This document shows, piece after piece, positions 1,169 to 32,710 of a stretch of DNA of 64,000 nucleotides. Each line of letters opens with the position of its first letter. The stretch's first letter is position 1. Made by a program: the position numbers and the translations under genes. This stretch comes from Escherichia phage finno. Location: sequence record MN850619.1. One strand, given 5' to 3'. The notes under the pieces are model-generated. The model was not told where the DNA came from. It was given only the letters and a program-made list of their open reading frames with translations, and did not search any database.

Positions 1169-1367
1169 CGTAGTAATAAATTGCTGTCTGTCTTGTAAAC
1201 TTCTTAGTATTTCTTGTCAGATAGCAATTAGAATTAATAGCCGTTTCTACATAGTTGCAATAGTCAGCTTCTGATATTCTGGACCACACGCCACAGATTT
1301 GCATGTAAAAACGTTTTGCCTTTGTGTTAATGTTAGTTGTAACCATCAATTCGCGACTGTACAGCAT
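1161..1367 (-). CDS. hypothetical small protein
   Basis: 68 aa ORF; GGAGA RBS upstream of ATG at 1367. Confidence 0.5.
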   Translation of the reverse strand: MLYSRELMVTTNINTKAKRFYMQICGVWSRISEADYCNYVETAINSNCYLTRNTKKFTRQTAIYYYDK

Positions 1368-1463
1368 TTTTAGATTCTCCAGTTTAGGAAGTGGGCTTGA
1401 TTGCCCGTCTGATGCAAATATTAGATAACCATACTCAAAGAGTCAATAGAAATTTTAAAAATA

Positions 1464-1476
1464 TTTTTTTTTTTTT
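1464..1476. repeat. T13 homopolymer tract (A13 on minus strand)
   Basis: Counted directly in sequence at 1464-1476 inside a non-coding region. Confidence 0.9.
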
Positions 1477-1627
1477 GCAAAATTGTAATGAAACGGGTGC
1501 GCGCGACTACCACAAAACAGAACTACAATCAAGAATTATTTTTCAATCCGCTACAAATTTTTCTGTTGACTTTTATTTCCAGATGTGGTAGCCTTGTGAG
1601 AAATAGCGACATCCCCACCTACACCCA

Positions 1628-1775
1628 CCTACCTGCACAATTCTAAAATGATTTTTCTTGCCCGACCTGATTTTTCTCTGCACGTTTTGAAAATGATTTT
1701 TCTATCCGGCGATGAGATTTTTTGGGATATCTGTACAGACCCCTCCAGATACCTGCACAAATTGAAAATGAAAAA
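1628..1775. repeat. three iteron-like direct repeats, core CTGCAC(A/G)nnTnnAAAATGA
   Basis: Copies at about 1628-1656, 1675-1701 and 1747-1775; GATTTTTCT also occurs three times between them. Confidence 0.7.
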
Positions 1776-1816
1776 GGCCGCCTTACCTTAAATTTTTCAA
1801 TGGGTTAGGCAGCCTT
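1766..1816 (-). terminator. rho-independent terminator candidate after macro-domain gene
   Basis: Imperfect hairpin AAGGCCGCC...GGCAGCCTT followed on minus strand by TTTTTCATTTTC; same stem as the hairpin at 5945-5964. Confidence 0.45.
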
Positions 1817-1849
1817 CTTAGATGATTTGTAGATACTGTGAAGTACTAA

Positions 1850-12843: not shown

Positions 12844-13241
12844 ATAACCTTTCTACGCTTTATCTGGATAATGTTCTTTTTACAATATTCGATAGCTTCA
12901 TCTATTGACCCAAAACTTTCCTTCTCCACAAAGAAGCGAACTTCACCATCTTGTATCTTTTGTTCTTCGGCTGTTGGCTCTTCAAGTATTTTACTTGATA
13001 CTTCTCTGTTAATCTGCATTACATACTCGAAAGAGTTCTTCTTGTATCCAACTATTTTAATGTAACCCCTCTGGCGAAGACGATTGAACCGAGTTGACTT
13101 GTTTGTCTTGGATACATCTGGAAATTCCTTGTCATGGATACTACGTATCTGTGAGCAAGTAAATGTTTTATCATAGCCAAACTCATTATACAGGACTTTT
13201 AACAGTTCAATCATAACATCACTCCCAAATAACTTTTGCAT
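12834..13241 (-). CDS. paralog family protein, subtype B copy 2
   Basis: Start moved to ATG at 13241 (MQKLFGSDVM) to match subtype B copy 1; shares C-terminal motif ending KVIWE. Confidence 0.55.
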   Translation of the reverse strand: MQKLFGSDVMIELLKVLYNEFGYDKTFTCSQIRSIHDKEFPDVSKTNKSTRFNRLRQRGYIKIVGYKKNSFEYVMQINREVSSKILEEPTAEEQKIQDGEVRFFVEKESFGSIDEAIEYCKKNIIQIKRRKVIWE

Positions 13242-13683
13242 GTTTAACTTTAATAAGATGCTCTTTGCAGTGCTCAATAGCTTCATCTAGTGTTTTAAAC
13301 ATAACATCCGCGATAAAGTATCTTACGTCAGGTTGTACATCAACATCTTTAACCTCAGATAAGTTTGATTTTTGTGAACTCCCCAACTCTTCACGCGTGT
13401 TATCTAGCATCCTTGACAGTTGTATGTGCTTCTCCATAAAGGCTCGATTTAATTGATTAATACTTAGTCTACCTTTGCTTTTTACCTGCCCTACAGTCAG
13501 TAGTACACCAGACTGTCTTAACATTGTTAGATACCCACGGGTATTACTGATTGACTGGCCTCGTATAAAAAGGCTATTCTCTCTTAATGCGTCAATTGCT
13601 TCGTTAGAGTCAAAAGTGTTTTCTGTCCCGAAGGTTTTGTATAAAATCTCTATTACGTGCTTCTGTAAATTGCAAAAAATCAT
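13219..13683 (-). CDS. paralog family protein, subtype A copy 2
   Basis: Colinear with 14105..14560 over its whole length (MIFC..QK..IEILY...FDSNEAI...EHCK...KVIWE). Confidence 0.6.
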   Translation of the reverse strand: MIFCNLQKHVIEILYKTFGTENTFDSNEAIDALRENSLFIRGQSISNTRGYLTMLRQSGVLLTVGQVKSKGRLSINQLNRAFMEKHIQLSRMLDNTREELGSSQKSNLSEVKDVDVQPDVRYFIADVMFKTLDEAIEHCKEHLIKVKHAKVIWE

Positions 13684-13704
13684 AGTGTATTCCTAATCAA
13701 ATGT

Positions 13705-14127
13705 TTAAACTTCTTCCCAAACAATACGCTTTCTTTTTGTTTGGATAACCGTCCTCTTACAATGCTCAACTGCTGCCTCCATACTGGTAAAGTGTATGTC
13801 ACCTATGAAGTACCCTACTTCACCTACACTGACCTCTTCATCCTTTTGTTGATAGTCATTACAATTTAAAAGCACATTTTTAGCTTTGCTTTCATTGATT
13901 CTCATAAGATACTCATTATTAAATCCTGTCGCTCCAACAACACTAATGTACCCACTTTTACGTAATCTGTGAGACCAATTAGCTTTATCCCTGATTGAAG
14001 CATGTGGTAGATATTTATTAAAAACCTTAGTTAGTTGTGAGCCAGAAAATGTTTTATCATAGCCAAAATTTATATACAGAACCTTCAGAAGCTCAAACAT
14101 GTTATTACTCCCAAATAATTTTTGCAC
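13705..14127 (-). CDS. paralog family protein, subtype B copy 1
   Basis: MQKLFGSNNMFELLKVLY N-terminus; C-terminal AAVEHCKRTVIQTKRKRIVWE. Confidence 0.6.
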   Translation of the reverse strand: MQKLFGSNNMFELLKVLYINFGYDKTFSGSQLTKVFNKYLPHASIRDKANWSHRLRKSGYISVVGATGFNNEYLMRINESKAKNVLLNCNDYQQKDEEVSVGEVGYFIGDIHFTSMEAAVEHCKRTVIQTKRKRIVWEEV

Positions 14128-14560
14128 GTTTTACTTTGATAATATACTTTTTGCAGTGTTCAACAGCATCTTGGAGTGTATCAAACATCAACTCACCAAT
14201 AAAGAATTTTATGTCTGGAGACACACCTACACCACCACTTAAGTCTTTTTGCTGCTCTTCACGTTGGTTTCGTGGCTCTTTAAGTAAATAGTCTAGCTGA
14301 ATGTGCTTCTCAATAAAACCTCTATTTAATTGGTTGATGAGCATCCTCCCTTGTTGCTTAATCTGTCCTACCACGATGAGCACACCCCACTTTCTCATCT
14401 GAGTCAAGTAGTACCTGATGTTTGCTATTGGCTGTTTTTTGATGTAATCACTTCCTTCTTGTAGGGCTTCAATAGCTTCATTTGAGTCAAATGTGTTATC
14501 TGTCCCAAACTTATTGTATAGAATCTCAATAATTCTTTTTTGGAAGCTGCAAAAAATCAT
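14105..14560 (-). CDS. paralog family protein, subtype A copy 1
   Basis: 151 aa; C-terminal DAVEHCKKYIIKVKRAKIIWE. Confidence 0.6.
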   Translation of the reverse strand: MIFCSFQKRIIEILYNKFGTDNTFDSNEAIEALQEGSDYIKKQPIANIRYYLTQMRKWGVLIVVGQIKQQGRMLINQLNRGFIEKHIQLDYLLKEPRNQREEQQKDLSGGVGVSPDIKFFIGELMFDTLQDAVEHCKKYIIKVKRAKIIWE

Positions 14561-14569
14561 AATTTTCTC

Positions 14570-14848
14570 TCAATCAAAAGTTACGTTTGTTACTGCCATT
14601 GCAGATTTGCATTTTACAGGGTCTACAACGTGATAAAGTACACTACAGTTACCTGTGCTGTCTGGTACAGGCTTTACCCATTGCTGCTTTATAGTTGGCT
14701 CCCCTAAGTCTTTGTAAGAGCCATCTGTAAAGTTGTTTACCATCTCAAGTGCAATTGGTTCTGGAACATGACCACGTATCATGTACATTTCACAACCATT
14801 ACCACCTTCACTGACTAATGGTAAAATCTCCCACTTCTCTTTAGCCAT
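14570..14848 (-). CDS. hypothetical protein
   Basis: 92 aa ORF. Confidence 0.5.
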   Translation of the reverse strand: MAKEKWEILPLVSEGGNGCEMYMIRGHVPEPIALEMVNNFTDGSYKDLGEPTIKQQWVKPVPDSTGNCSVLYHVVDPVKCKSAMAVTNVTFD

Positions 14849-15356
14849 TGTAAGTCGCCCTATAAACTGTCTCGAACTTCAACAGGAGAGATATTGCCAA
14901 ATCTGTATAGTTGTTGTCAAGCACATCTGGCATATTATTTTTGATATATTTCTCTTGCTCTTCATAGGTCATCTTAGGAGTGCTTAGAAGGTTATCTCCT
15001 TGCTTCTGGTTATCAAGTTTAGTCTGGATAAACCAGTTTGCACAGTGATGCTCACCACCCTTTGTAACAGGTTTGTGGTGGCCTAATGTAAATGTTTGCT
15101 TACCTGTATACCTGCAAAGATTGTTCAGTGTTGCAATAGTGTTCTTCACAACACACCATTCATATAGGTTATCTATTGTGTAGTGTGGGTAATAACGGAC
15201 AAGTGCTCTTTCACGGAAGTTATCACGATTCCAAAGAACCATGTGATTCGAGTTAGAAGGGTCGTATTGGTGGGAGTCAATGAACTCTTGACGCTCCTCA
15301 AAGCTGAGTCTTAGAACTGACATTGCAGCCGAACGTTTCAGGTTTGACAGATACAT
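14841..15356 (-). CDS. HNH endonuclease-like protein
   Basis: GHHKPVTKGGEHHCANW...NQKQG resembles the HNH motif. Confidence 0.55.
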   Translation of the reverse strand: MYLSNLKRSAAMSVLRLSFEERQEFIDSHQYDPSNSNHMVLWNRDNFRERALVRYYPHYTIDNLYEWCVVKNTIATLNNLCRYTGKQTFTLGHHKPVTKGGEHHCANWFIQTKLDNQKQGDNLLSTPKMTYEEQEKYIKNNMPDVLDNNYTDLAISLLLKFETVYRATYNG

Positions 15357-15363
15357 ATCATCT

Positions 15364-15395
15364 CCAAAATAAAAAGGGAACCTTTACAGTTCCCT
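15364..15395 (-). terminator. rho-independent terminator
   Basis: GGGAAC-CTTTACA-GTTCCC hairpin followed on minus strand by TTTTTATTTTGG. Confidence 0.75.
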
Positions 15396-15407
15396 TATAG
15401 TATCTGT

Positions 15408-15728
15408 TTACTGAGCTACTTTCAAGATGCTTGTGAATGAAATCTCACTCTCATCCATAAACTCTTTTGCTTCTCCAGTAACTTTTACAAAGTTATCTAG
15501 GCAGATAATCTTCTTATCTTTCTTGCTATAGGTTAGCTTGACCTTTTCGATATCTTTCTTAGAGTTTTTCTCTTCATTAAAGAGCTTCACAGCTTCTTTA
15601 AATGGTAGGTATGAACCATCATCATCGCTAATAAAACCTGTGCCACAATAGTAGAAGTTGTATTCTTTAGCCATAAACTGACACAGTACGAAAATCTGTA
15701 ATTTGCGAGTGTTATAGACTTTGCTCAT
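15408..15728 (-). CDS. hypothetical protein
   Basis: 106 aa ORF. Confidence 0.55.
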   Translation of the reverse strand: MSKVYNTRKLQIFVLCQFMAKEYNFYYCGTGFISDDDGSYLPFKEAVKLFNEEKNSKKDIEKVKLTYSKKDKKIICLDNFVKVTGEAKEFMDESEISFTSILKVAQ

Positions 15729-15730
15729 GA

Positions 15731-15988
15731 TTATTTAGCCTTCTTATTACGTTTACGGTTACGAGCTTTCTTAGCTGCTCGTTTAATAGCTGCTGCACCA
15801 GACGGACGATGGGCTTGTTTCTTACCACCTTTGCCACGGCCTACATAGATACTTTTCATAATCTCATTGGCCAGCTTCTCATCCATCTTGAAGTTCTGCA
15901 TAAGATGAGTCACATCAACTCCAGTGAGCATACCTAATGAAGCTAGTGCTGCTTTTACTTTTGATTTAAAACTATTCCAGATTCCCAT
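15731..15988 (-). CDS. small basic protein, Lys/Arg-rich C-terminus
   Basis: 85 aa; C-terminal AAKKARNRKRNKKAK. Confidence 0.5.
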   Translation of the reverse strand: MGIWNSFKSKVKAALASLGMLTGVDVTHLMQNFKMDEKLANEIMKSIYVGRGKGGKKQAHRPSGAAAIKRAAKKARNRKRNKKAK

Positions 15989-16113
15989 TTCGTATCTCTC
16001 TCAATCTTTTCACAAAATGTTTTAAGTTCTTCTTCAGTGACACCAAACGGTTAAGTTTGTTCTGTAGAACATTGTAAAGTGGCCTTTACCGATAACCTAC
16101 TTTACGACGAAAC

Positions 16114-16599
16114 TTACTCGGCTCTCCACTGACAATCACCTTGCCACCCATACTCTTTTCTCCATAGGTTTTGGTTATCAGAACCACGATACGGTTTAAC
16201 TGTTGGTTTAGATGAATCATACTTACCATCAATCACCACGTCAACATATTTCATTACATCTAGGTGAATTTTTTCGTGTAACTGAAAACCTGTCCAGAGC
16301 CAGATAGACTTCTCTGGGTAAACAGTTTTAATACGTTTACATATATTGGTAACCTCTTGAATATTTCTATCATCCAGAGGTTCTCCACCAAGTATTGACA
16401 AACCACTGACAGCATTATCACCCATTAGTTGGATGATTCCGTAGAGGTTTGCATAAGTAAATGCTTTACCAGCATTAAACTTCCAAGACTCCCTGTTAAA
16501 GCAGCCTTCACAGTGATGTTTACAGCCAGCTACGAAGAGGCTTACACGAACCCCTTCACCATTAGCTGTATCGAATGGTCTAATCTCCATGTAATTCAT
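16114..16599 (-). CDS. nrdG: anaerobic ribonucleotide reductase activating protein
   Basis: Radical-SAM cluster motif GCKHHCEGCFN near N-terminus; located just before nrdD. Confidence 0.8.
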   Translation of the reverse strand: MNYMEIRPFDTANGEGVRVSLFVAGCKHHCEGCFNRESWKFNAGKAFTYANLYGIIQLMGDNAVSGLSILGGEPLDDRNIQEVTNICKRIKTVYPEKSIWLWTGFQLHEKIHLDVMKYVDVVIDGKYDSSKPTVKPYRGSDNQNLWRKEYGWQGDCQWRAE

Positions 16600-16633
16600 C
16601 TAGTTACCTCACCAATTTATTTAATTGCTTTAC

Positions 16634-17029
16634 TCATTCAAACACTACCTGACAGGGAACCTGTTTAGTAATAAACTCTTCACAGTGCTCTTTAATGAAG
16701 TTTTGTAATGGCACACAGTCTTGTGCACAAGTCATTAGCATAATGTACTCTGGATTCATAATATTTTCAAGACTGTAGAAGACAACATTGTCAGATAATT
16801 CATGACCGTCTTCTTCAGACCAAGTTCCAGTGACTACAGCTAATTTGTCAAGCAATTCATTAGGCAACGGTACACCATCTTCTACGGAATCACTTAGAAC
16901 GTTGTCGCTGATGTACAATGTGAAGGTCGTATGGAATGTTGAGTATTTTACGTGATTCTTTTCGCAAGAGCCACACTCTGAGGCGTAATCTTTAAGCCAC
17001 TCTAACTGTTTTTGATTTAACTTAATCAT
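16634..17029 (-). CDS. hypothetical protein
   Basis: 131 aa ORF between nrdD and nrdG. Confidence 0.55.
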   Translation of the reverse strand: MIKLNQKQLEWLKDYASECGSCEKNHVKYSTFHTTFTLYISDNVLSDSVEDGVPLPNELLDKLAVVTGTWSEEDGHELSDNVVFYSLENIMNPEYIMLMTCAQDCVPLQNFIKEHCEEFITKQVPCQVVFE

Positions 17030-17226
17030 AATTTCACCTTAGTTGGTAATGCACTGAATGCTATAGCTAACCCTAAAAATGGTTTGAAGCATGACCATAA
17101 ATCCATCTGACCATTATATGATAAATTCCATTGTGGGTCTGAAAAACCCCATACCATAGCACTAACCCCAAAGAAGAAGATTATAGTGCGGAGTATGTAT
17201 ATCATCGTTTTTGATATCTTAAACAT
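17026..17226 (-). CDS. small membrane protein
   Basis: 66 aa, two hydrophobic segments. Confidence 0.45.
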   Translation of the reverse strand: MFKISKTMIYILRTIIFFFGVSAMVWGFSDPQWNLSYNGQMDLWSCFKPFLGLAIAFSALPTKVKL

Positions 17227-17328
17227 TTTAACTTATCTCTCAATTCACAATAAGAGAGTCCTAAAAAGAACCCTAGTAAGACAGAACCGATGAACAACCC
17301 AATAATACTATCTGCCATATCTAACATC

Positions 17329-17371
17329 CAAAGAAAAAGGTGATGTAAGCCTATCAAGACCCACATCACCT
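17329..17371 (-). terminator. terminator candidate after nrdD
   Basis: Minus strand TTGACA then AGGTGATGT...ACATCACCT 9 bp stem then TTTTTCTTT. Confidence 0.6.
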
Positions 17372-17380
17372 TGTCAAGTT

Positions 17381-19525
17381 TTACATAGAAATCCTGTCAC
17401 GAATCTCAGCGATTTTTGCATCGTTCATTCGGGATTCACCTTTAATCTTAGTCCATCCCAGATATCCGCACACCCTGTTAATCACAGAGATATCATGTGA
17501 ATGACAAACCTCACATTCTTCGACATCAGCCTTTGGTCTGTTACCACAATGTTCACAGATTGCTAAGTCAAAGTTAAGACCTTGATAGAAACCTTTCAAC
17601 ATCCCTCTTGTAATACAACTCTTAAGTGCTGATAAGTTTTCTGGATTAGCCACCCTTACATACTGGATTCTGCCGCCTCTACAGATATGGAAGAAGGGTT
17701 CTTCTAAGTCCTGCTTCTCAAATGGTGTAATGTCTGCTGCAACATTCATATGGAAGCTGTTTGTAAAGTATTCCTTATCAGAAACACCTTTGATAACGCC
17801 AAACATATCTCTGAACTGTTTTAGCTGAGTTCCACAAAGTGATTCTGCTGGAGTGCCATAGACTGCATATAAGAAGCCATCTTCATTTTTAAACTCTTCA
17901 GTCTTCATGTTGATATATTCCAGAACATCATATGCAAAACTACAGCTTCCAACTTCATGAAGTCGTTTACCTTCAGCAAGAACAGATAGCTCATCAAGCG
18001 CAGTAACCCCAAAAGAAGCTGTGAAGGACTTCACGATATCCCAGCCAACCTTGTCAGTAGGCTTCTTATTCCCTTTGTACAGACCACCTTGTGTGAATGC
18101 AAGAGGGTTAGAACTTGCTGGCATATTAGCAATCATTTCGTAGCGTTTCTTGTGGAAGCTGCGAATCATTTCTAGGTACTTATCAAGCTCTTTCCAGAAA
18201 TCTAAACCATTCTCTTTAGAATACTGGTAAATCATTGGCAAGTTCAAAGATACAGCACCAATGTTAGCACGACCAACGTAGAACTCTTCCCCATCCTCAT
18301 TAAGATATGGAGATAAGAAGGCTCTACAACCCATCGGCGAAATTACCTTGCCAGAACGCTCAAAAGCTTCTGCTACAGCACCATGACCAGATACACTTAA
18401 GAAATCTGGATACATTGCTTTAGAGCAACACTCTATAGCTTTACTGTACAGGTGGCCTTGACAGATATTCTCATTATGTCTCTTCTGGTCATAAATATAA
18501 ACCAGTTTAGGGAATACAACAGGTTTCTTGCTCTTACCTTGTCCATTCATACGAACATCTAGGAGAGTACTTGCAATCATATATTGCAGTCGGTTATCTT
18601 CATTGGACATATCTGAGTCAAGTAACCCGAATGTCAAAGTTGTGAATGCAAAATCCCCACGGCTACAAGGTACAGTATTTAGCTTCATTTCAAGTGACTG
18701 GAAACCTTGAGTTAGTTCAATCTGTAGCTGCTCCATGACATAATTATGGTAATGTTCTTTAGGAATACCATACGATGCTGCTTTCTCAGCATGATAGCGT
18801 AGAGACTTCTTAGCATACGGTACAAGTACCTTATCAATCTCTGCTAAAGTAAAGCCACCAAATTGCTGTGCAGTTGCTGAAAGAACTACGTCACCAATAA
18901 CCTGTAAGGCCGACAGCACAGACTTTGGTTCACAATATTCGATGCCAGACATTTCAAAGCCACCTTTCAGGACTTTACCAATGTCAAACAGGCAACAGTT
19001 GATACCACCAAAAATTAGGTCTCTTAAATCATGGATATAGATAAACCCTTTTTCAATGGCTTCAAGTTCCTCTGGTGTTAAATGGTACTGTTTAAAGATT
19101 TCTTTAGTCAGATAACCACGAATAATTGAGCCTTTTGTAGAAATTAAACTGCTGTCAAAATTAGCGTTTTCTCGGTCACCTAAGAAGAGTGTATCCTTGG
19201 TCTTCTGGTAGAGTTCATCCCAATTTTGAGCAACCTCTTTACGGTAATTTCTATATGTTGAGTAAGACTCATAAATCTCGTGATTGACTTCTGCCAAAGC
19301 ACCCTCAACAATACTGTGAATATCATTTACAGAAATTAGCAAATTATTCTGCTTAGTGGACTTTACCAGAATCCTCATAAATGCTGACTCAAGAGCTTGG
19401 GTAACATCTGGTGGGAGTTCTTTATACCCAACCCTATTAGCTGACTTTGTGACTGCTGCTAAAACTTTTTTGATATCAGGTTCTTCGAGTGAGCCATTCT
19501 TTTTAATAATCTGTACTTTGTTCAT
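17381..19525 (-). CDS. nrdD: anaerobic ribonucleoside-triphosphate reductase (class III)
   Basis: 714 aa; C-terminal zinc ribbon CEHCGNRP...CEVCHSHD and glycyl-radical region RVCGYLG. Confidence 0.85.
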   Translation of the reverse strand: MNKVQIIKKNGSLEEPDIKKVLAAVTKSANRVGYKELPPDVTQALESAFMRILVKSTKQNNLLISVNDIHSIVEGALAEVNHEIYESYSTYRNYRKEVAQNWDELYQKTKDTLFLGDRENANFDSSLISTKGSIIRGYLTKEIFKQYHLTPEELEAIEKGFIYIHDLRDLIFGGINCCLFDIGKVLKGGFEMSGIEYCEPKSVLSALQVIGDVVLSATAQQFGGFTLAEIDKVLVPYAKKSLRYHAEKAASYGIPKEHYHNYVMEQLQIELTQGFQSLEMKLNTVPCSRGDFAFTTLTFGLLDSDMSNEDNRLQYMIASTLLDVRMNGQGKSKKPVVFPKLVYIYDQKRHNENICQGHLYSKAIECCSKAMYPDFLSVSGHGAVAEAFERSGKVISPMGCRAFLSPYLNEDGEEFYVGRANIGAVSLNLPMIYQYSKENGLDFWKELDKYLEMIRSFHKKRYEMIANMPASSNPLAFTQGGLYKGNKKPTDKVGWDIVKSFTASFGVTALDELSVLAEGKRLHEVGSCSFAYDVLEYINMKTEEFKNEDGFLYAVYGTPAESLCGTQLKQFRDMFGVIKGVSDKEYFTNSFHMNVAADITPFEKQDLEEPFFHICRGGRIQYVRVANPENLSALKSCITRGMLKGFYQGLNFDLAICEHCGNRPKADVEECEVCHSHDISVINRVCGYLGWTKIKGESRMNDAKIAEIRDRISM

Positions 19526-19542
19526 TATTGCCCCTTTACATG

Positions 19543-19569
19543 CTAAAAAGGTCTCCGAAGAGACCCTTT
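19543..19569 (-). terminator. rho-independent terminator
   Basis: GGTCTC-CGAA-GAGACC hairpin followed on minus strand by TTTTTAGC. Confidence 0.65.
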
Positions 19570-19573
19570 CATT

Positions 19574-19780
19574 TTAAATCTTTTTAGAAAACTTCGCAAA
19601 GAGTTCTCTTAGTTTTTCAGTGATACCTAACTGTATCTCTAATATTTCAAAGATAACCCATAGTAACATGGCTCCAAACAATGAACCTTGTTCAAAGTCA
19701 GTAAATAGGTTAACAATAAGCATACCAATCACAATAGCTGGTGCATCAACAACCAAACCTTCCCAAAGGCGTTTAAGCAT
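19574..19780 (-). CDS. small membrane protein
   Basis: 68 aa with two hydrophobic segments. Confidence 0.45.
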   Translation of the reverse strand: MLKRLWEGLVVDAPAIVIGMLIVNLFTDFEQGSLFGAMLLWVIFEILEIQLGITEKLRELFAKFSKKI

Positions 19781-21397: not shown

Positions 21398-23632
21398 CTA
21401 AACACCACAACCCTCGCAATAAGCATCTTGCAGTGCAGATTTACCTACACCAATGCGACTGTTAAGGTAGTACATGGTTTTCATACCTACCGAGTTGGCA
21501 TAAATCATGTACTTCAAAGCTTGAGCTAATGATACCTTCTTAGACTTTGCATAGTCAACATAGAAGTCTGAAGAGATAGCTTGACCAGTGAACTTTTGAA
21601 CAATTGCATAACAATCAATCATATCAAAGGTGTCGATACCCCAAGCAATTTCATAGACATACTTCAGCTCTTCATAATCTGGAACAATAAAAAGTACGTT
21701 ACCAGTTGCAGACTTTTTAGTTAAAATAAAGTCACGAATTGGGTACAAGCCGTTTGTCGTATTAGTTGCTAGTGAAGAACTCTCATTAGGCATGTAAGCT
21801 TCTAATACAGAGTTTCGGATTCCACCATTTTCTTTGATACGTTGTGATAAGTCATCCCAATCATATCGTAGTTTTGCATCATGCTTTTCATCAATCTTCT
21901 TGTTAGCTGTCTTTGGAGGAACCCAGCCTTCAGGATACTTAGTGAACTTCATGTACTCTGGAACGCCACGCTCTTTAGCAAGTCTCAGAGAGGCTTCATG
22001 CAGATAGTAAGAGTGCATCTCTGCAAGTTCATGAAGTTTCGTTTTACCTGCTCGTGAAGAGTAGTTCACGTAGTTCTTCGCAAGGTAATGAGCCACATTT
22101 GTAAGGCCAATCCCAACAGAACGACGCTTCTGAACATGGTTACGCATCGACGGATACGGATAATCCATAAGGTCAATAACGGAGTCAACCATTGCAAGAG
22201 CATAATAAGCAACGTCAGCGTATTCATCTTCTGAAATTCTCCCTGCAACCAAACTAGCTAGGAAGCAAAGAGCCACCTCACCATCCTCTTTCACAGCATC
22301 GTCTCTGTAAAGGTCTGTCTCTTTCTCAAAACCATACACTGGCAATACAATTTCCATACAAAGATTTGACATCTTCAATGGTTCTTTAAATGGTGTATGT
22401 GTGTTCGCATTATTTGTGAAGAATGGATACACACGACCTGTAGCATAACGCTGTTGAATAAACAGCTTAGCAATTTCACGAGCCTTTACTCGTCTGTGCT
22501 TAACTCCTGAATGTACTGCATGACCAACTGCCATAGCAAACTCATCAGCAGATGCTGTGTAGAACATGTCATAGAGTTTTGGTGCATCTTTGTAAGAGAA
22601 TAACAACCAATCTGTATCATACTGAACACACTGCCAGAAATAATCGTTTGTGCCGAATGAGTAGTCCATCTCATTAATACGTTTAGAAGGAACCGTTGTA
22701 GGGTGCTTCAAACGCAGTAAATCTTCAATCTGCGGGTCTAGAGCAGTGTAGAAGTTATTAGCTGAACCACCACGACTCTTCTGTTTATTTGCCTCTACAG
22801 ATGAACGTACAAGCTTGTAATAAGGCAGTTTACCCATGTGCTCAATAGTATTTTGACGGATACCATCACCAATAGTACGTGTCTCCATCAGCATACCAAT
22901 ACCAGCTTGCTTTGTGGTCATATCATAAGCAACCTTTGCAGCAATACCGAGAGACTCAGCAGTATCATTTGCCTTAATCAAACAGCATGACGCATAACCT
23001 GATTTAGTAGCTCTTAAACCGTTTAAATAAGGTGTAGGAGCATTAATCTTCAGGTCAGATAGATAAGTGTACAGCTTGATAACATCTTGCAGTCTACGGT
23101 GCTTTGGTTGCTTCTCAAAGGCTTTCATAGCCATACCCATAAACATAAATTGCGGTGACTCAAAAAGTCTTCCCGTTTTAATATCACGGATACCATACTT
23201 GTCTCTGAACTGTTTCAAGACTGCATAACCGTAAGAGATATCTTTTGAGTGTACGATGTAACCTTGCAGGTATTCAAGCTCTTCCTGTGAATAGTCCATC
23301 TTCTCCCAAAGTCCCGCCCTCTCCATGTTTTTAACGAAGGTAACCAGCGTAGGAACCTTAGTAAAGCCTCCAAAGGCTTCTTTGTAGATAATACCCAAAA
23401 GCAGTCGTCCAGCCATATCTGAGTACTCTTGAGTTTGTTTATCAACACAAACATCAATCATGGCTTGGTGCATCTCTTTTGTAGTGCAACCCTCATAGAC
23501 ACGTTTCATGGCTTCCATAGTGACTTCTGACCAGATAATTCCACGCTTATCTGCCCATGATGCCCATTTATTCAGTCTTTCTGGGTCAAAGCTTACTACT
23601 GTACCATTTGATTTTTTAATTGTCTTAATCAT
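21398..23632 (-). CDS. nrdA: ribonucleotide reductase large subunit (class Ia)
   Basis: 744 aa; active-site region SNLCMEIVLP; N-terminal ATP-cone-like segment. Confidence 0.85.
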   Translation of the reverse strand: MIKTIKKSNGTVVSFDPERLNKWASWADKRGIIWSEVTMEAMKRVYEGCTTKEMHQAMIDVCVDKQTQEYSDMAGRLLLGIIYKEAFGGFTKVPTLVTFVKNMERAGLWEKMDYSQEELEYLQGYIVHSKDISYGYAVLKQFRDKYGIRDIKTGRLFESPQFMFMGMAMKAFEKQPKHRRLQDVIKLYTYLSDLKINAPTPYLNGLRATKSGYASCCLIKANDTAESLGIAAKVAYDMTTKQAGIGMLMETRTIGDGIRQNTIEHMGKLPYYKLVRSSVEANKQKSRGGSANNFYTALDPQIEDLLRLKHPTTVPSKRINEMDYSFGTNDYFWQCVQYDTDWLLFSYKDAPKLYDMFYTASADEFAMAVGHAVHSGVKHRRVKAREIAKLFIQQRYATGRVYPFFTNNANTHTPFKEPLKMSNLCMEIVLPVYGFEKETDLYRDDAVKEDGEVALCFLASLVAGRISEDEYADVAYYALAMVDSVIDLMDYPYPSMRNHVQKRRSVGIGLTNVAHYLAKNYVNYSSRAGKTKLHELAEMHSYYLHEASLRLAKERGVPEYMKFTKYPEGWVPPKTANKKIDEKHDAKLRYDWDDLSQRIKENGGIRNSVLEAYMPNESSSLATNTTNGLYPIRDFILTKKSATGNVLFIVPDYEELKYVYEIAWGIDTFDMIDCYAIVQKFTGQAISSDFYVDYAKSKKVSLAQALKYMIYANSVGMKTMYYLNSRIGVGKSALQDAYCEGCGV

Positions 23633-32453: not shown

Positions 32454-32496
32454 GTAAGCCTCTTTTAAGTAACTATTAAGTTTTAATCTTTTATCT

Positions 32497-32515
32497 TAAC
32501 GTATTCTATACGTTA
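32497..32515. promoter_or_regulatory. perfect inverted repeat TAACGTA-TTCTA-TACGTTA (operator-like)
   Basis: Read directly in the divergent intergenic region between the two transcription blocks. Confidence 0.55.
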
Positions 32516-32710
32516 TACTTTAAAGCTTTTTAAAAGCTATTAAATAATCTTTTAAGAGTTTTAAAGTATCTGTATAGTTAAACTGTTAAGTAACCTTTTA
32601 AGTAAAAACCCACTTCGCAAAGATTAACACCTTGTCAAGTGCATTGTCAACTTGCTTTTTATAATTTTTTGCAGTAATGTATGAGGTTAATGATTTTAGA
32701 GGGAGTAAAA

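Follow-up and report, generated by a model that had tools for sequence, protein, structure and literature searches.

A putative control region with a lineage-specific repeat element in the genomes of Felix O1-like phages

Strong sigma-70 promoters with an UP element, of the rrnB P1 type or from phage early regions, have hexamers spaced by 17 bp and an upstream A/T tract that matches the UP consensus. Intrinsic (Rho-independent) terminators combine a GC-rich stem with a U-run. Iteron origins of replication (lambda ori, P1 oriR, pSC101) carry several repeats in the same orientation and an AT-rich tract. Elsewhere in phages, initiation is primed by transcription, as at the primary origin of T7 and the origins of T4, and phage origins of this kind can be individually dispensable. 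Type III antitoxin arrays (ToxI, CptI, TenpI) place non-identical, A-rich units between a promoter and a terminator, and in phage PhiTE a pseudo-ToxI reportedly serves as a precedent for a decoy. Sponge RNAs of the CsrB/RsmZ type are short untranslated transcripts with several copies of one motif. Here we describe a gap of about 480 bp between two genes of Escherichia phage finno (positions 1368-1849 of the window, that is, of the whole stretch of 64,000 nucleotides of sequence record MN850619.1 that was analysed), which shares features with each of these systems.

Compared with them, the promoters and the terminator predicted in the gap appear ordinary, and the repeat element appears to be promoter-linked and comparable to iterons or to sponge and antitoxin RNAs. 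As in strong sigma-70 promoters, the hexamers are separated by 17 bp and directly preceded by an A/T tract in agreement with the UP consensus, and they are conserved across relatives while the spacer sequence varies. Unlike in such promoters, two of them lie back-to-back here, 120 bp apart, the approximately 70 bp between them are ultra-conserved far beyond the need of an UP element, and the rightward -10 element is poor in its common allele. The putative terminator differs from the known type in nothing substantial. Its stem and U-run lie on the minus strand directly after the stop codon of the neighbouring macro-domain gene, and the sole oddity is a U-tail that overlaps the last repeat motif, which is on the opposite strand.

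The explanation that we favour, tentatively, is that the gap is a control region between two early transcription units which also gives rise to a short non-coding transcript that bears the repeats and has an accessory role. A hairpin (1771-1819) would terminate a leftward operon running from rIIA to macro. A promoter with an UP element (1446-1418) would restart leftward transcription into a cluster of small early genes, and a second promoter (1566-1594), back-to-back with the first, would fire rightward, where no gene lies. The resulting untranslated transcript would start near 1601 and span about 170-220 nt in the direction of the convergent terminator. Its copies of TGCAC-N6-AAAATGA, three here and four in most relatives, may be sites for one sequence-specific factor, encoded by the phage or the host, that acts on the RNA or on the underlying DNA. 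The element would be accessory (regulatory or decoy-like) and not essential. A non-coding transcript is favoured because a conserved promoter aims at repeats where nothing is encoded, because the leader has a strand-specific RNA structure where it is long enough to test, and because the length of the transcribed unit is fixed. An accessory role is favoured because the subfamily has conserved the array although it can be dispensed with in the laboratory. The features are as follows.

1368-1417, minus strand: 5' untranslated region (UTR) of the early gene at 1161-1367, with the Shine-Dalgarno sequence GGAG (complement of 1377-1380)
1446-1418, minus strand: predicted leftward sigma-70 promoter from a promoter scan, with -35 TTGACT (1446-1441), a 17-bp spacer and -10 TAATAT (1423-1418)
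1447-1480, minus strand: UP-element-like A/T tract directly upstream of the leftward -35, read on the minus strand as AAAAATATTTTTAAAA
1495-1507, no strand: GC island GGGTGCGCGCGAC between the two predicted promoters, moderately conserved as GGGyGCrCrCGAC
1505-1574, no strand: ultra-conserved block with phased T-tracts and the -35 element of the predicted rightward promoter
1566-1594, plus strand: predicted rightward sigma-70 promoter, with -35 TTGACT (1566-1571), a 17-bp spacer and an extended -10 composed of TGg (1586-1588) and TAGCCT (1589-1594)
1595-1632, plus strand: variable leader or spacer, with the direct repeat CCCACCTAC present twice (1614-1622 and 1624-1632)
1633-1651, plus strand: repeat motif copy 1, CTGCACAATTCTAAAATGA, with little or no variation in the subfamily
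1678-1696, plus strand: repeat motif copy 2, CTGCACGTTTTGAAAATGA, with a mosaic breakpoint at its 3' end
1730-1739, no strand: palindrome TCTGTACAGA, conserved as TCTnTnnAGA in 13 of 13 aligned relatives
1753-1771, plus strand: repeat motif copy 3, CTGCACAAATTGAAAATGA, overlapping the terminator U-tail
1760-1819, minus strand: putative intrinsic terminator of the rIIA-to-macro operon, with a stem at 1771-1819 followed by UUUUUCAUUUUC

Conservation and non-coding character of the gap

The window belongs to a Felixounavirus, a Felix O1-like myovirus. Its positions 1100-2700 are 91-96% identical to Salmonella phage Si3 and Escherichia phages phiWec172/174/177, and partial matches to this stretch were found in about 250 records of the Felix O1-like group. 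All genes that surround the gap are on the minus strand. The gap is bounded by the stop codon of a gene encoding a macro-domain 'phosphatase' (1850-2629; Pfam Macro) and by the start of an early gene of 68 amino acids (1161-1367). An equivalent gap of 470-520 bp is found at the same position in records of Felixounavirus, Suspvirus and Mooglevirus, where it is either unannotated or filled with small open reading frames (ORFs). The gap is a non-coding region, by its sequence a control region, which is present in every Felix O1-like phage examined. The best-conserved stretch of the locus is the block 1505-1574, which exceeds the flanking genes in conservation: its mean identity to the window is 0.85-0.97 over 34 distinct sequences from three genera, compared with about 0.5 in the adjoining coding ends.

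No other non-coding sequence found in the window is as strongly conserved as that in this region, which is common to phages of Salmonella, E. coli, Citrobacter, Erwinia and Hafnia. Felix O1 and the phages related to it are classics of phage typing, and they also serve as biocontrol agents and candidates for therapy. The two putative early promoters, the terminator and the lineage-specific repeat element are concrete experimental targets, and work on them could show how Felix O1-like phages organise early expression or where they begin replication.

An earlier note on this DNA, made from the sequence alone, had described the gap as non-coding and had listed in it three direct repeats, three copies of GATTTTTCT, a T13 tract, a GC island and a long hairpin. 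Each of these was found. The T13 tract is at 1464-1476 and the GC island at 1495-1507, exact plus-strand copies of CTGCACNNNTNNAAAATGA start at 1633, 1678 and 1753, and the hairpin at 1771-1819 folds significantly (z = -4.45 on the minus strand). The GATTTTTCT copies are at 1650, 1669 and 1695, with one more elsewhere in the window, and two of the three are part of longer repeat units of 43 nt. The comparison with related phages that the note had proposed showed the gap and its repeats in the Felix O1-like relatives and no conserved ORF or coding gene across them, although such a gene was what the note had named as a finding that would refute its reading. No hairpin and no known site was identified in the GC island.

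The annotation of some relatives corresponds to a different explanation, in which the gap contains one or two small plus-strand genes (a 47-amino-acid ORF at 1648-1791 and a 52-amino-acid ORF at 1488-1646). ORFs of 47-66 amino acids are open in many relatives and have been annotated in Bas63, Michonne, JLBYU28 and Felix O1, and the repeat spacings of 45 and 39 nt preserve the frame in Felix-like phages. However, the frame that the 47-51-amino-acid ORF takes through the repeats is not kept in Michonne (where the spacing is 41), in Prophecy or at the fourth copy of Felix O1, and the 52-amino-acid ORF over the conserved block has a different frame in Felix O1, Si3 and the SUSP phages. Variable columns fall on the three codon positions as 22/22/21 and 26/28/30, with no third-position excess, and CTTTGGAG is invariant amid 'codons' that undergo radical changes. 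The candidate ORFs lack a Shine-Dalgarno sequence, and the annotations in the records conflict in strand and position. With neither a frame-conserved ORF nor a third-position bias, a protein-coding gap was rejected and is regarded as highly improbable. For annotators, this means that the small ORFs called in the gap are probably not genes.

The size of the gap raises the explanation that it is a direct terminal repeat or a packaging site. Published terminal repeats of Felix O1-like phages are 581, 608 and 613 bp long (range 580-613), which is close to the size of the gap, and the unverified assembly TH10 breaks inside the region. The test was provided by the SpeI restriction map of phage UAB_Phi87, which has a terminal repeat of 608 bp and Bal31-sensitive SpeI fragments of 4,322 and 2,819 bp. 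The sum of these fragments minus the repeat is 6,533 bp, which fits the SpeI fragment of 6,568 bp at 13,014-19,582. The homologue of the region lies outside this terminal fragment, at 21,883-22,403. The start of the SPARTY record, re-opened with PhageTerm, is 7.8 kb away from the region, and that of the JLBYU28 record is 7.5 kb away (for JLBYU28, opening with PhageTerm was deduced from the stated practice of the same laboratory for other phages). The ends of TH10 are a mere assembly overlap of 72 bp, and a 'terminal repeat' in KMM2 was likewise dismissed as an assembly overlap of only 64 bp. The restriction-map test refuted a terminal repeat or packaging site, and this explanation is almost certainly wrong. 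The SpeI map and the end-oriented records instead place the element 6-8 kb inside one genome end, with the rightward promoter pointing towards the long arm.

A search of the window with Rfam 15 and for tRNAs gave no gathering-level match and no tRNA, and the best match in a permissive Rfam search reached 21 bits against a cut-off of 50. Nothing similar to the region was found by blastn in 5,426 complete E. coli genomes and 72,556 plasmids. Mimicry of a host element was rejected, since these genomes and plasmids gave no match and the species genomes described below gave only chance-like hits to pairs of motifs. The repeat element and the ultra-conserved block matched no curated family, and no description of them was found in the literature searched.

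Predicted promoters, terminator and rightward transcript

The leftward promoter and its UP element are well supported as predictions. Among 34 distinct relatives, GTCAA within the -35 element never varies, the -10 element reads TA(A/G/C)TAT, and the spacer is fixed in length and free in sequence. TTTGCATCA, just downstream of the -10 element, is also invariant in these relatives, and the promoter is annotated as such in the ASO1B record. By our reading, AAAAATATTTTTAAAA fits the UP-element consensus, and TTTTAAAAATATTTTT in this tract is conserved in most relatives. Where the window has T13, nearly all relatives have T5 and phage momo has about T15, so the run appears to be a lineage-specific expansion of the distal A-tract of the UP element. 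No 50-mer of the window is richer in AT than 1443-1492 (88%), and 1416-1475 shares the lowest stability among the 60-mers. Both can be accounted for by the promoter and the UP element, which occupy those bases. Downstream, the 5' UTR of the early gene belongs to the translation-initiation family CCTAAAyTGGAGAwyywAAAAATG, a pattern that precedes four early genes in the window.

The reading of the hairpin 1771-1819 as the terminator of the leftward macro operon is likewise well supported by sequence comparison. It is drawn from better folding on the minus strand, from the UUUUUCAUUUUC tail and from G.U pairs that are possible on the minus strand only. The folding energy is -24.7 kcal/mol on the minus strand and -21.0 kcal/mol on the plus strand, and in Felix O1 the two values are -31.0 and -14.4 kcal/mol. 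Across 29 relatives, many pairs of the stem are G.U on the minus strand and would be A.C mismatches on the plus strand. A terminator is annotated at the hairpin in the public records of ASO1B and KhF2.

The rightward promoter is predicted to start transcription near A1601. Its -35 element is contained in TTGACTTTT, which is invariant and forms the end of the block 1505-1574. The spacer exists as two unrelated alleles of equal length (17 bp), ATTTCCAGATGTGG in the window and the G-rich GGGGAGAGGGGGAG in Felix O1 and most others, and the leading TA of the -10 element is kept in both. The element was read as a promoter because a fixed spacing with a free sequence is a promoter signature. In the Kolesnikviruses (phages of Erwinia, Hafnia and Salmonella), the same layout is found downstream of the macro gene: a leftward TTGACT-17-TATATT lies back-to-back with a rightward TTGACG/C-18-TATACT. 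Each of these agrees with the consensus at 10 of 12 positions, and the rightward hexamers are conserved while their spacer is variable. The rightward promoter is thus well supported, as a prediction, in the Kolesnikviruses and in the allele of the window, and less so in the G-rich allele.

The direction of transcription was deduced from this layout together with the folding of the Kolesnikvirus leader. Consensus folding of the 136-nt leader gave -30.7 kcal/mol for the rightward strand and -10.4 kcal/mol for the other strand, and single sequences gave -33 to -45 and -14 to -20 kcal/mol, respectively. Two base pairs of the leader switch between GC and AU in a compensatory manner. A rightward transcript with no encoded gene, starting near 1601 in the window, therefore appears likely. 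In phages with four repeat units, which belong to two genera, 265 nt consistently separate its predicted start from the terminator.

The leader region 1595-1632 of the window is replaced in most relatives by a G-rich allele of equal length. In these phages, GGGGAGAGGGGGAGTAAGAGGGGGAGAGGGG takes the place of window positions 1575-1628 (about 1410-1440 in the Felix O1 stretch L008). Read on the plus strand, this sequence is a canonical motif for a G-quadruplex, and the rightward -35 element lies just upstream of it. The allele of the window is unrelated, equal in length and C-rich on the plus strand. The break of the unverified assembly TH10 falls within the G-quadruplex tract.

The repeat array and its possible functions

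The bipartite repeat motif, TGCAC-N6-(A/G)AAATGA, has five A/T bases after it, and all copies have one orientation. CTGCACNNNTNNAAAATGA has no match in the 64 kb other than its three copies, and 100 dinucleotide shuffles gave a chance expectation of 0.00 matches. When two mismatches were allowed in a scan of the window, additional hits occurred only at the level of chance. Three copies with spacings of 45 and 75 bp are found in the window, phiWec172, Si3 and a few others, and four copies with spacings of 45/39/73 bp in most Felixounaviruses and Suspviruses. The spacings are 45/41/75 in Mooglevirus and 39/37/37 in Kolesnikvirus. The motif thus occurs as three or four same-strand copies in four genera (Felixounavirus, Suspvirus, Mooglevirus and Kolesnikvirus).

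A two-copy pattern was used to scan larger collections. Among 2.9 million viral contigs it gave 31 hits, all in contigs of 51-94 kb and most in contigs of 84-94 kb, the size of Ounavirinae genomes. A scan for the motif itself returned a single locus for each Ounavirinae contig of about 87 kb. Metagenomes gave the same phage group and chance hits, and 185,579 species genomes gave ten chance-like hits in AT-rich taxa and none in Enterobacteria. These scans indicate that the element is specific to the subfamily and universal in it, as far as sampled. A motif confined to this locus, both in the window and in each genome, led to the rejection of a dispersed phage promoter motif. Sigma-54 promoters, the DnaA box, IHF sites, the MarA/SoxS marbox, ops and boxA were also set aside, since spacing or key bases did not fit when the motif was informally compared by eye with their consensuses.

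Several further observations concern the array. In a distant relative (IMG/VR contig L141, 88,375 bp, positions about 600-1200), the non-coding region is larger, and about 12 copies of ATGTTAA lie upstream of four or five copies of TGCAC-N6-AAAATGA. In the Kolesnikviruses, the unit spacing of 37 bp puts TTGCCA 17 bp upstream of TAAAAT or GAAAAT in the next motif, so that sequences like consensus promoters arise inside the array (Prophecy, sequence L129, 3341-3406). The repeat units were nevertheless rejected as sigma-70 promoters, since TTGCCA-17-TAAAAT of the Kolesnikviruses becomes a spacing of 25 bp in Felix-like phages and is not conserved. One of the hits in the species genomes, in a metagenome-assembled genome of Ignavibacteria (sequence L131, 1290-1439), is an unrelated array in which a 32-bp unit that contains TGCAC-N6-GAAAATGA is repeated 4.7 times in tandem, in an intergenic region next to ORFs that look phage-like by eye. 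This likeness is probably a chance match selected by the search pattern.

The array also lies at a mosaic breakpoint. Most Felixounaviruses match the gap of the window only as far as position 1696 (query position 329), where repeat copy 2 has its 3' end. The macro-domain protein of the window has about 41% identity to the version of most Felixounaviruses and 99.6% to that of FSL SP-107. Independent assortment of the central spacer, the unit number and the macro allele suggests that the conserved motifs serve as junctions for recombination.

Information on the need for the array comes from PhageMaP, a barcode-insertion screen that used two to four guide RNAs per annotated gene in the Felixounavirus Bas63. 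In Bas63, 'gene 96' is an ORF call across the repeat array, and 'gene 97' (64,299-64,457 in record MZ501086, homologous to about 1490-1640 of the window) covers the conserved block, the rightward promoter and the spacer. In the PhageMaP tables consulted, gene 96 scored from +0.24 to +0.98 in all conditions examined, like the non-essential macro gene and unlike the DNA polymerase (about -1.3). To the extent covered by these tables, insertions within the array are tolerated in laboratory hosts. Gene 97 is absent from the same tables, where its neighbours are present. The published text gives 12 of 161 genes as not recovered, without reasons gene by gene, and for gene 97 either a missing guide RNA or a missing viable insertion could be the cause.

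Some results weigh against a repeat-bearing transcript as the purpose of the locus. In the common allele, which includes that of Felix O1, the rightward -10 element is TAAGAG, in which the important last T is missing. In the plus direction the terminator is weak, and a rightward RNA is therefore not certain to have a discrete 3' end. Among 29 Felix-like sequences, the repeat part shows no conserved plus-strand RNA structure and no covariation (consensus -7.6 kcal/mol), and in the window the plus-strand RNA folds no better than shuffled sequence (z = -0.33). The literature searched for this phage group contained no transcript maps and no mapping of origins. The flanking proteins gave no candidate for a binding factor, as they have no Pfam domain except Macro and otherwise belong to PHROG families of unknown function. 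Finally, a bipartite motif with about 12 bp between the centres of its half-sites is equally what a DNA-binding protein would read.

The last point leads to an explanation at the level of DNA, in which a repressor or insulator bound to the repeats would control both promoters or separate convergent transcription, as an operator or roadblock array, and the RNA would have no function. The variable 6-bp centre of the bipartite motif and its single orientation throughout agree with this, as do the conservation of nucleotides irrespective of reading frame, the repeat part without RNA structure, and the conserved palindrome TCTGTACAGA nearby. However, relative to the leftward start the sites are 190-350 bp upstream, and relative to the rightward start they are at +32 to +170 downstream, which is unusual for operators, and no gene for a DNA-binding protein was found adjoining the region. 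The strand-specific structure of the Kolesnikvirus leader RNA also suggests that the transcript itself matters. A DNA-level array of this kind is doubtful on the whole.

A further explanation takes the transcript as an anti-defence decoy, similar to type III antitoxins (ToxI or a phage pseudo-ToxI), which would sequester a host RNase of the ToxN type. The order of promoter, repeats and terminator fits, as do the non-identical A-rich repeat units of 37-45 nt (39, 37 and 37 in the Kolesnikviruses). Each unit contains AAAAU or GAAAU, which resemble the published ToxN cleavage sites AA^AU and GAA^AU (PMC8860590). The array is dispensable in laboratory hosts, and PhiTE supplies the precedent. Unlike the antitoxin arrays, the region has no conserved pseudoknot stems or stems of another kind, one of its spacings is 73-75 nt, and no ToxI match was obtained from Rfam at E <= 5. 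No toxin gene is on the plus strand, and the next gene (macro) is on the minus strand. A host counterpart was not found either, with nothing similar in the E. coli genomes and plasmids and no motif array in the enterobacterial species genomes. The element is universal and syntenic in phages of different hosts, in contrast to the patchy spread usual for anti-defence genes, and array insertions caused no drop in fitness in the two Bas63 defence conditions consulted. We regard a decoy of this type as improbable.

The favoured reading, a transcript with an accessory role, has a more specific form that is unlikely but of wider interest. It would be an Ounavirinae-wide repeat RNA, made by the host RNA polymerase and antisense to the early genes, whose three or four UGCAC-N6-AAAAUGA copies, which look like translation-initiation regions of early genes of the phage with a mutated Shine-Dalgarno sequence, would titrate an RNA-binding factor or a nuclease. 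If true, this would amount to a new kind of sponge or decoy, encoded by a virus and tuning the early genes or blocking RNase-based defence of the host. Like the sponge RNAs of the CsrB/RsmZ type, it would be short and untranslated with several copies of one motif. It differs from them in that the motif is 19 nt long, bipartite and not a GGA in hairpin loops, that only three or four copies are present, and that the RNA is a prediction. In this form as in the favoured reading generally, the function of the repeats as recognition sites of a factor is inferred.

The replication-origin reading and neighbouring features

The main rival of the favoured reading is a replication origin, which we consider unlikely overall. 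In it, the repeats would be iterons for an initiator, the T-rich tract would be an unwinding element, and the rightward promoter would activate or prime initiation. The anatomy resembles that of iteron and promoter-primed origins, since three or four 19-bp bipartite repeats of the same orientation adjoin the window's 50-mer of highest AT content and one of its least stable 60-mers, and a promoter fires into the repeats with no gene downstream. Synteny of the element extends to the whole subfamily. In the end-oriented records its distance from a physical genome end is 6-8 kb and it points to the long arm, and the distant relative adds a second array, that of ATGTTAA repeats. On the other hand, the repeat spacing of 37-75 bp is irregular and exceeds the approximately 22 bp of classical iterons, scans of the flanking proteins with Pfam and PHROG revealed no adjoining gene for an initiator-like protein, and the AT-rich tract can be explained as an UP element, which the same bases are predicted to form. 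The insertions tolerated in the array of Bas63, as far as the PhageMaP tables consulted go, make an essential sole origin unlikely and are compatible with a redundant one.

GC skew did not point to the gap. The skew of the window follows the direction of transcription and changes sign only at about 32 kb and about 42 kb, and the longest unstable stretch is also elsewhere, at about 32 kb, where the skew flips. The earlier note had proposed GC skew as a check on an origin, and this check gave no sign of one at the gap. Of its description 'origin or regulatory hub', the hub has held, with an operon terminator, an UP-element promoter and a divergent promoter predicted, while the origin has no positive evidence beyond its anatomy. 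Its 'iteron-like repeats' are real, conserved in the subfamily and lineage-specific, but their spacing is not iteron-like.

Another site of interest is a further large gap of the window, at about 32.0-32.7 kb. Within it, 32,460-32,610 is the longest AT-rich and least stable stretch of the window, situated at a divergent gene boundary with a change in the sign of the skew. It is an alternative candidate for early promoters or for an origin.

Two likenesses among the early genes were also observed. The motif-containing sequence CCTACCTGCACAATTCTAAAATGA (1629-1651) bears a tentative likeness to the early-gene translation-initiation region CCTAAACTGGAGAATCTAAAAATG (1365-1392, minus strand), with GGAG changed to GCAC and on the opposite strand. 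When one or two gaps are allowed, about 18-19 of the 24 positions are the same. The small early genes are accompanied by near-identical cassettes at 232-310, 608-690 and 1078-1160. Each consists of a promoter, TTTACA-17-TAAAGT, that overlaps a GGGGCTT hairpin, followed by the conserved translation-initiation region. These cassettes are the counterparts of direct repeats of 57 bp that had already been reported for Felix O1 (PMC3185647).

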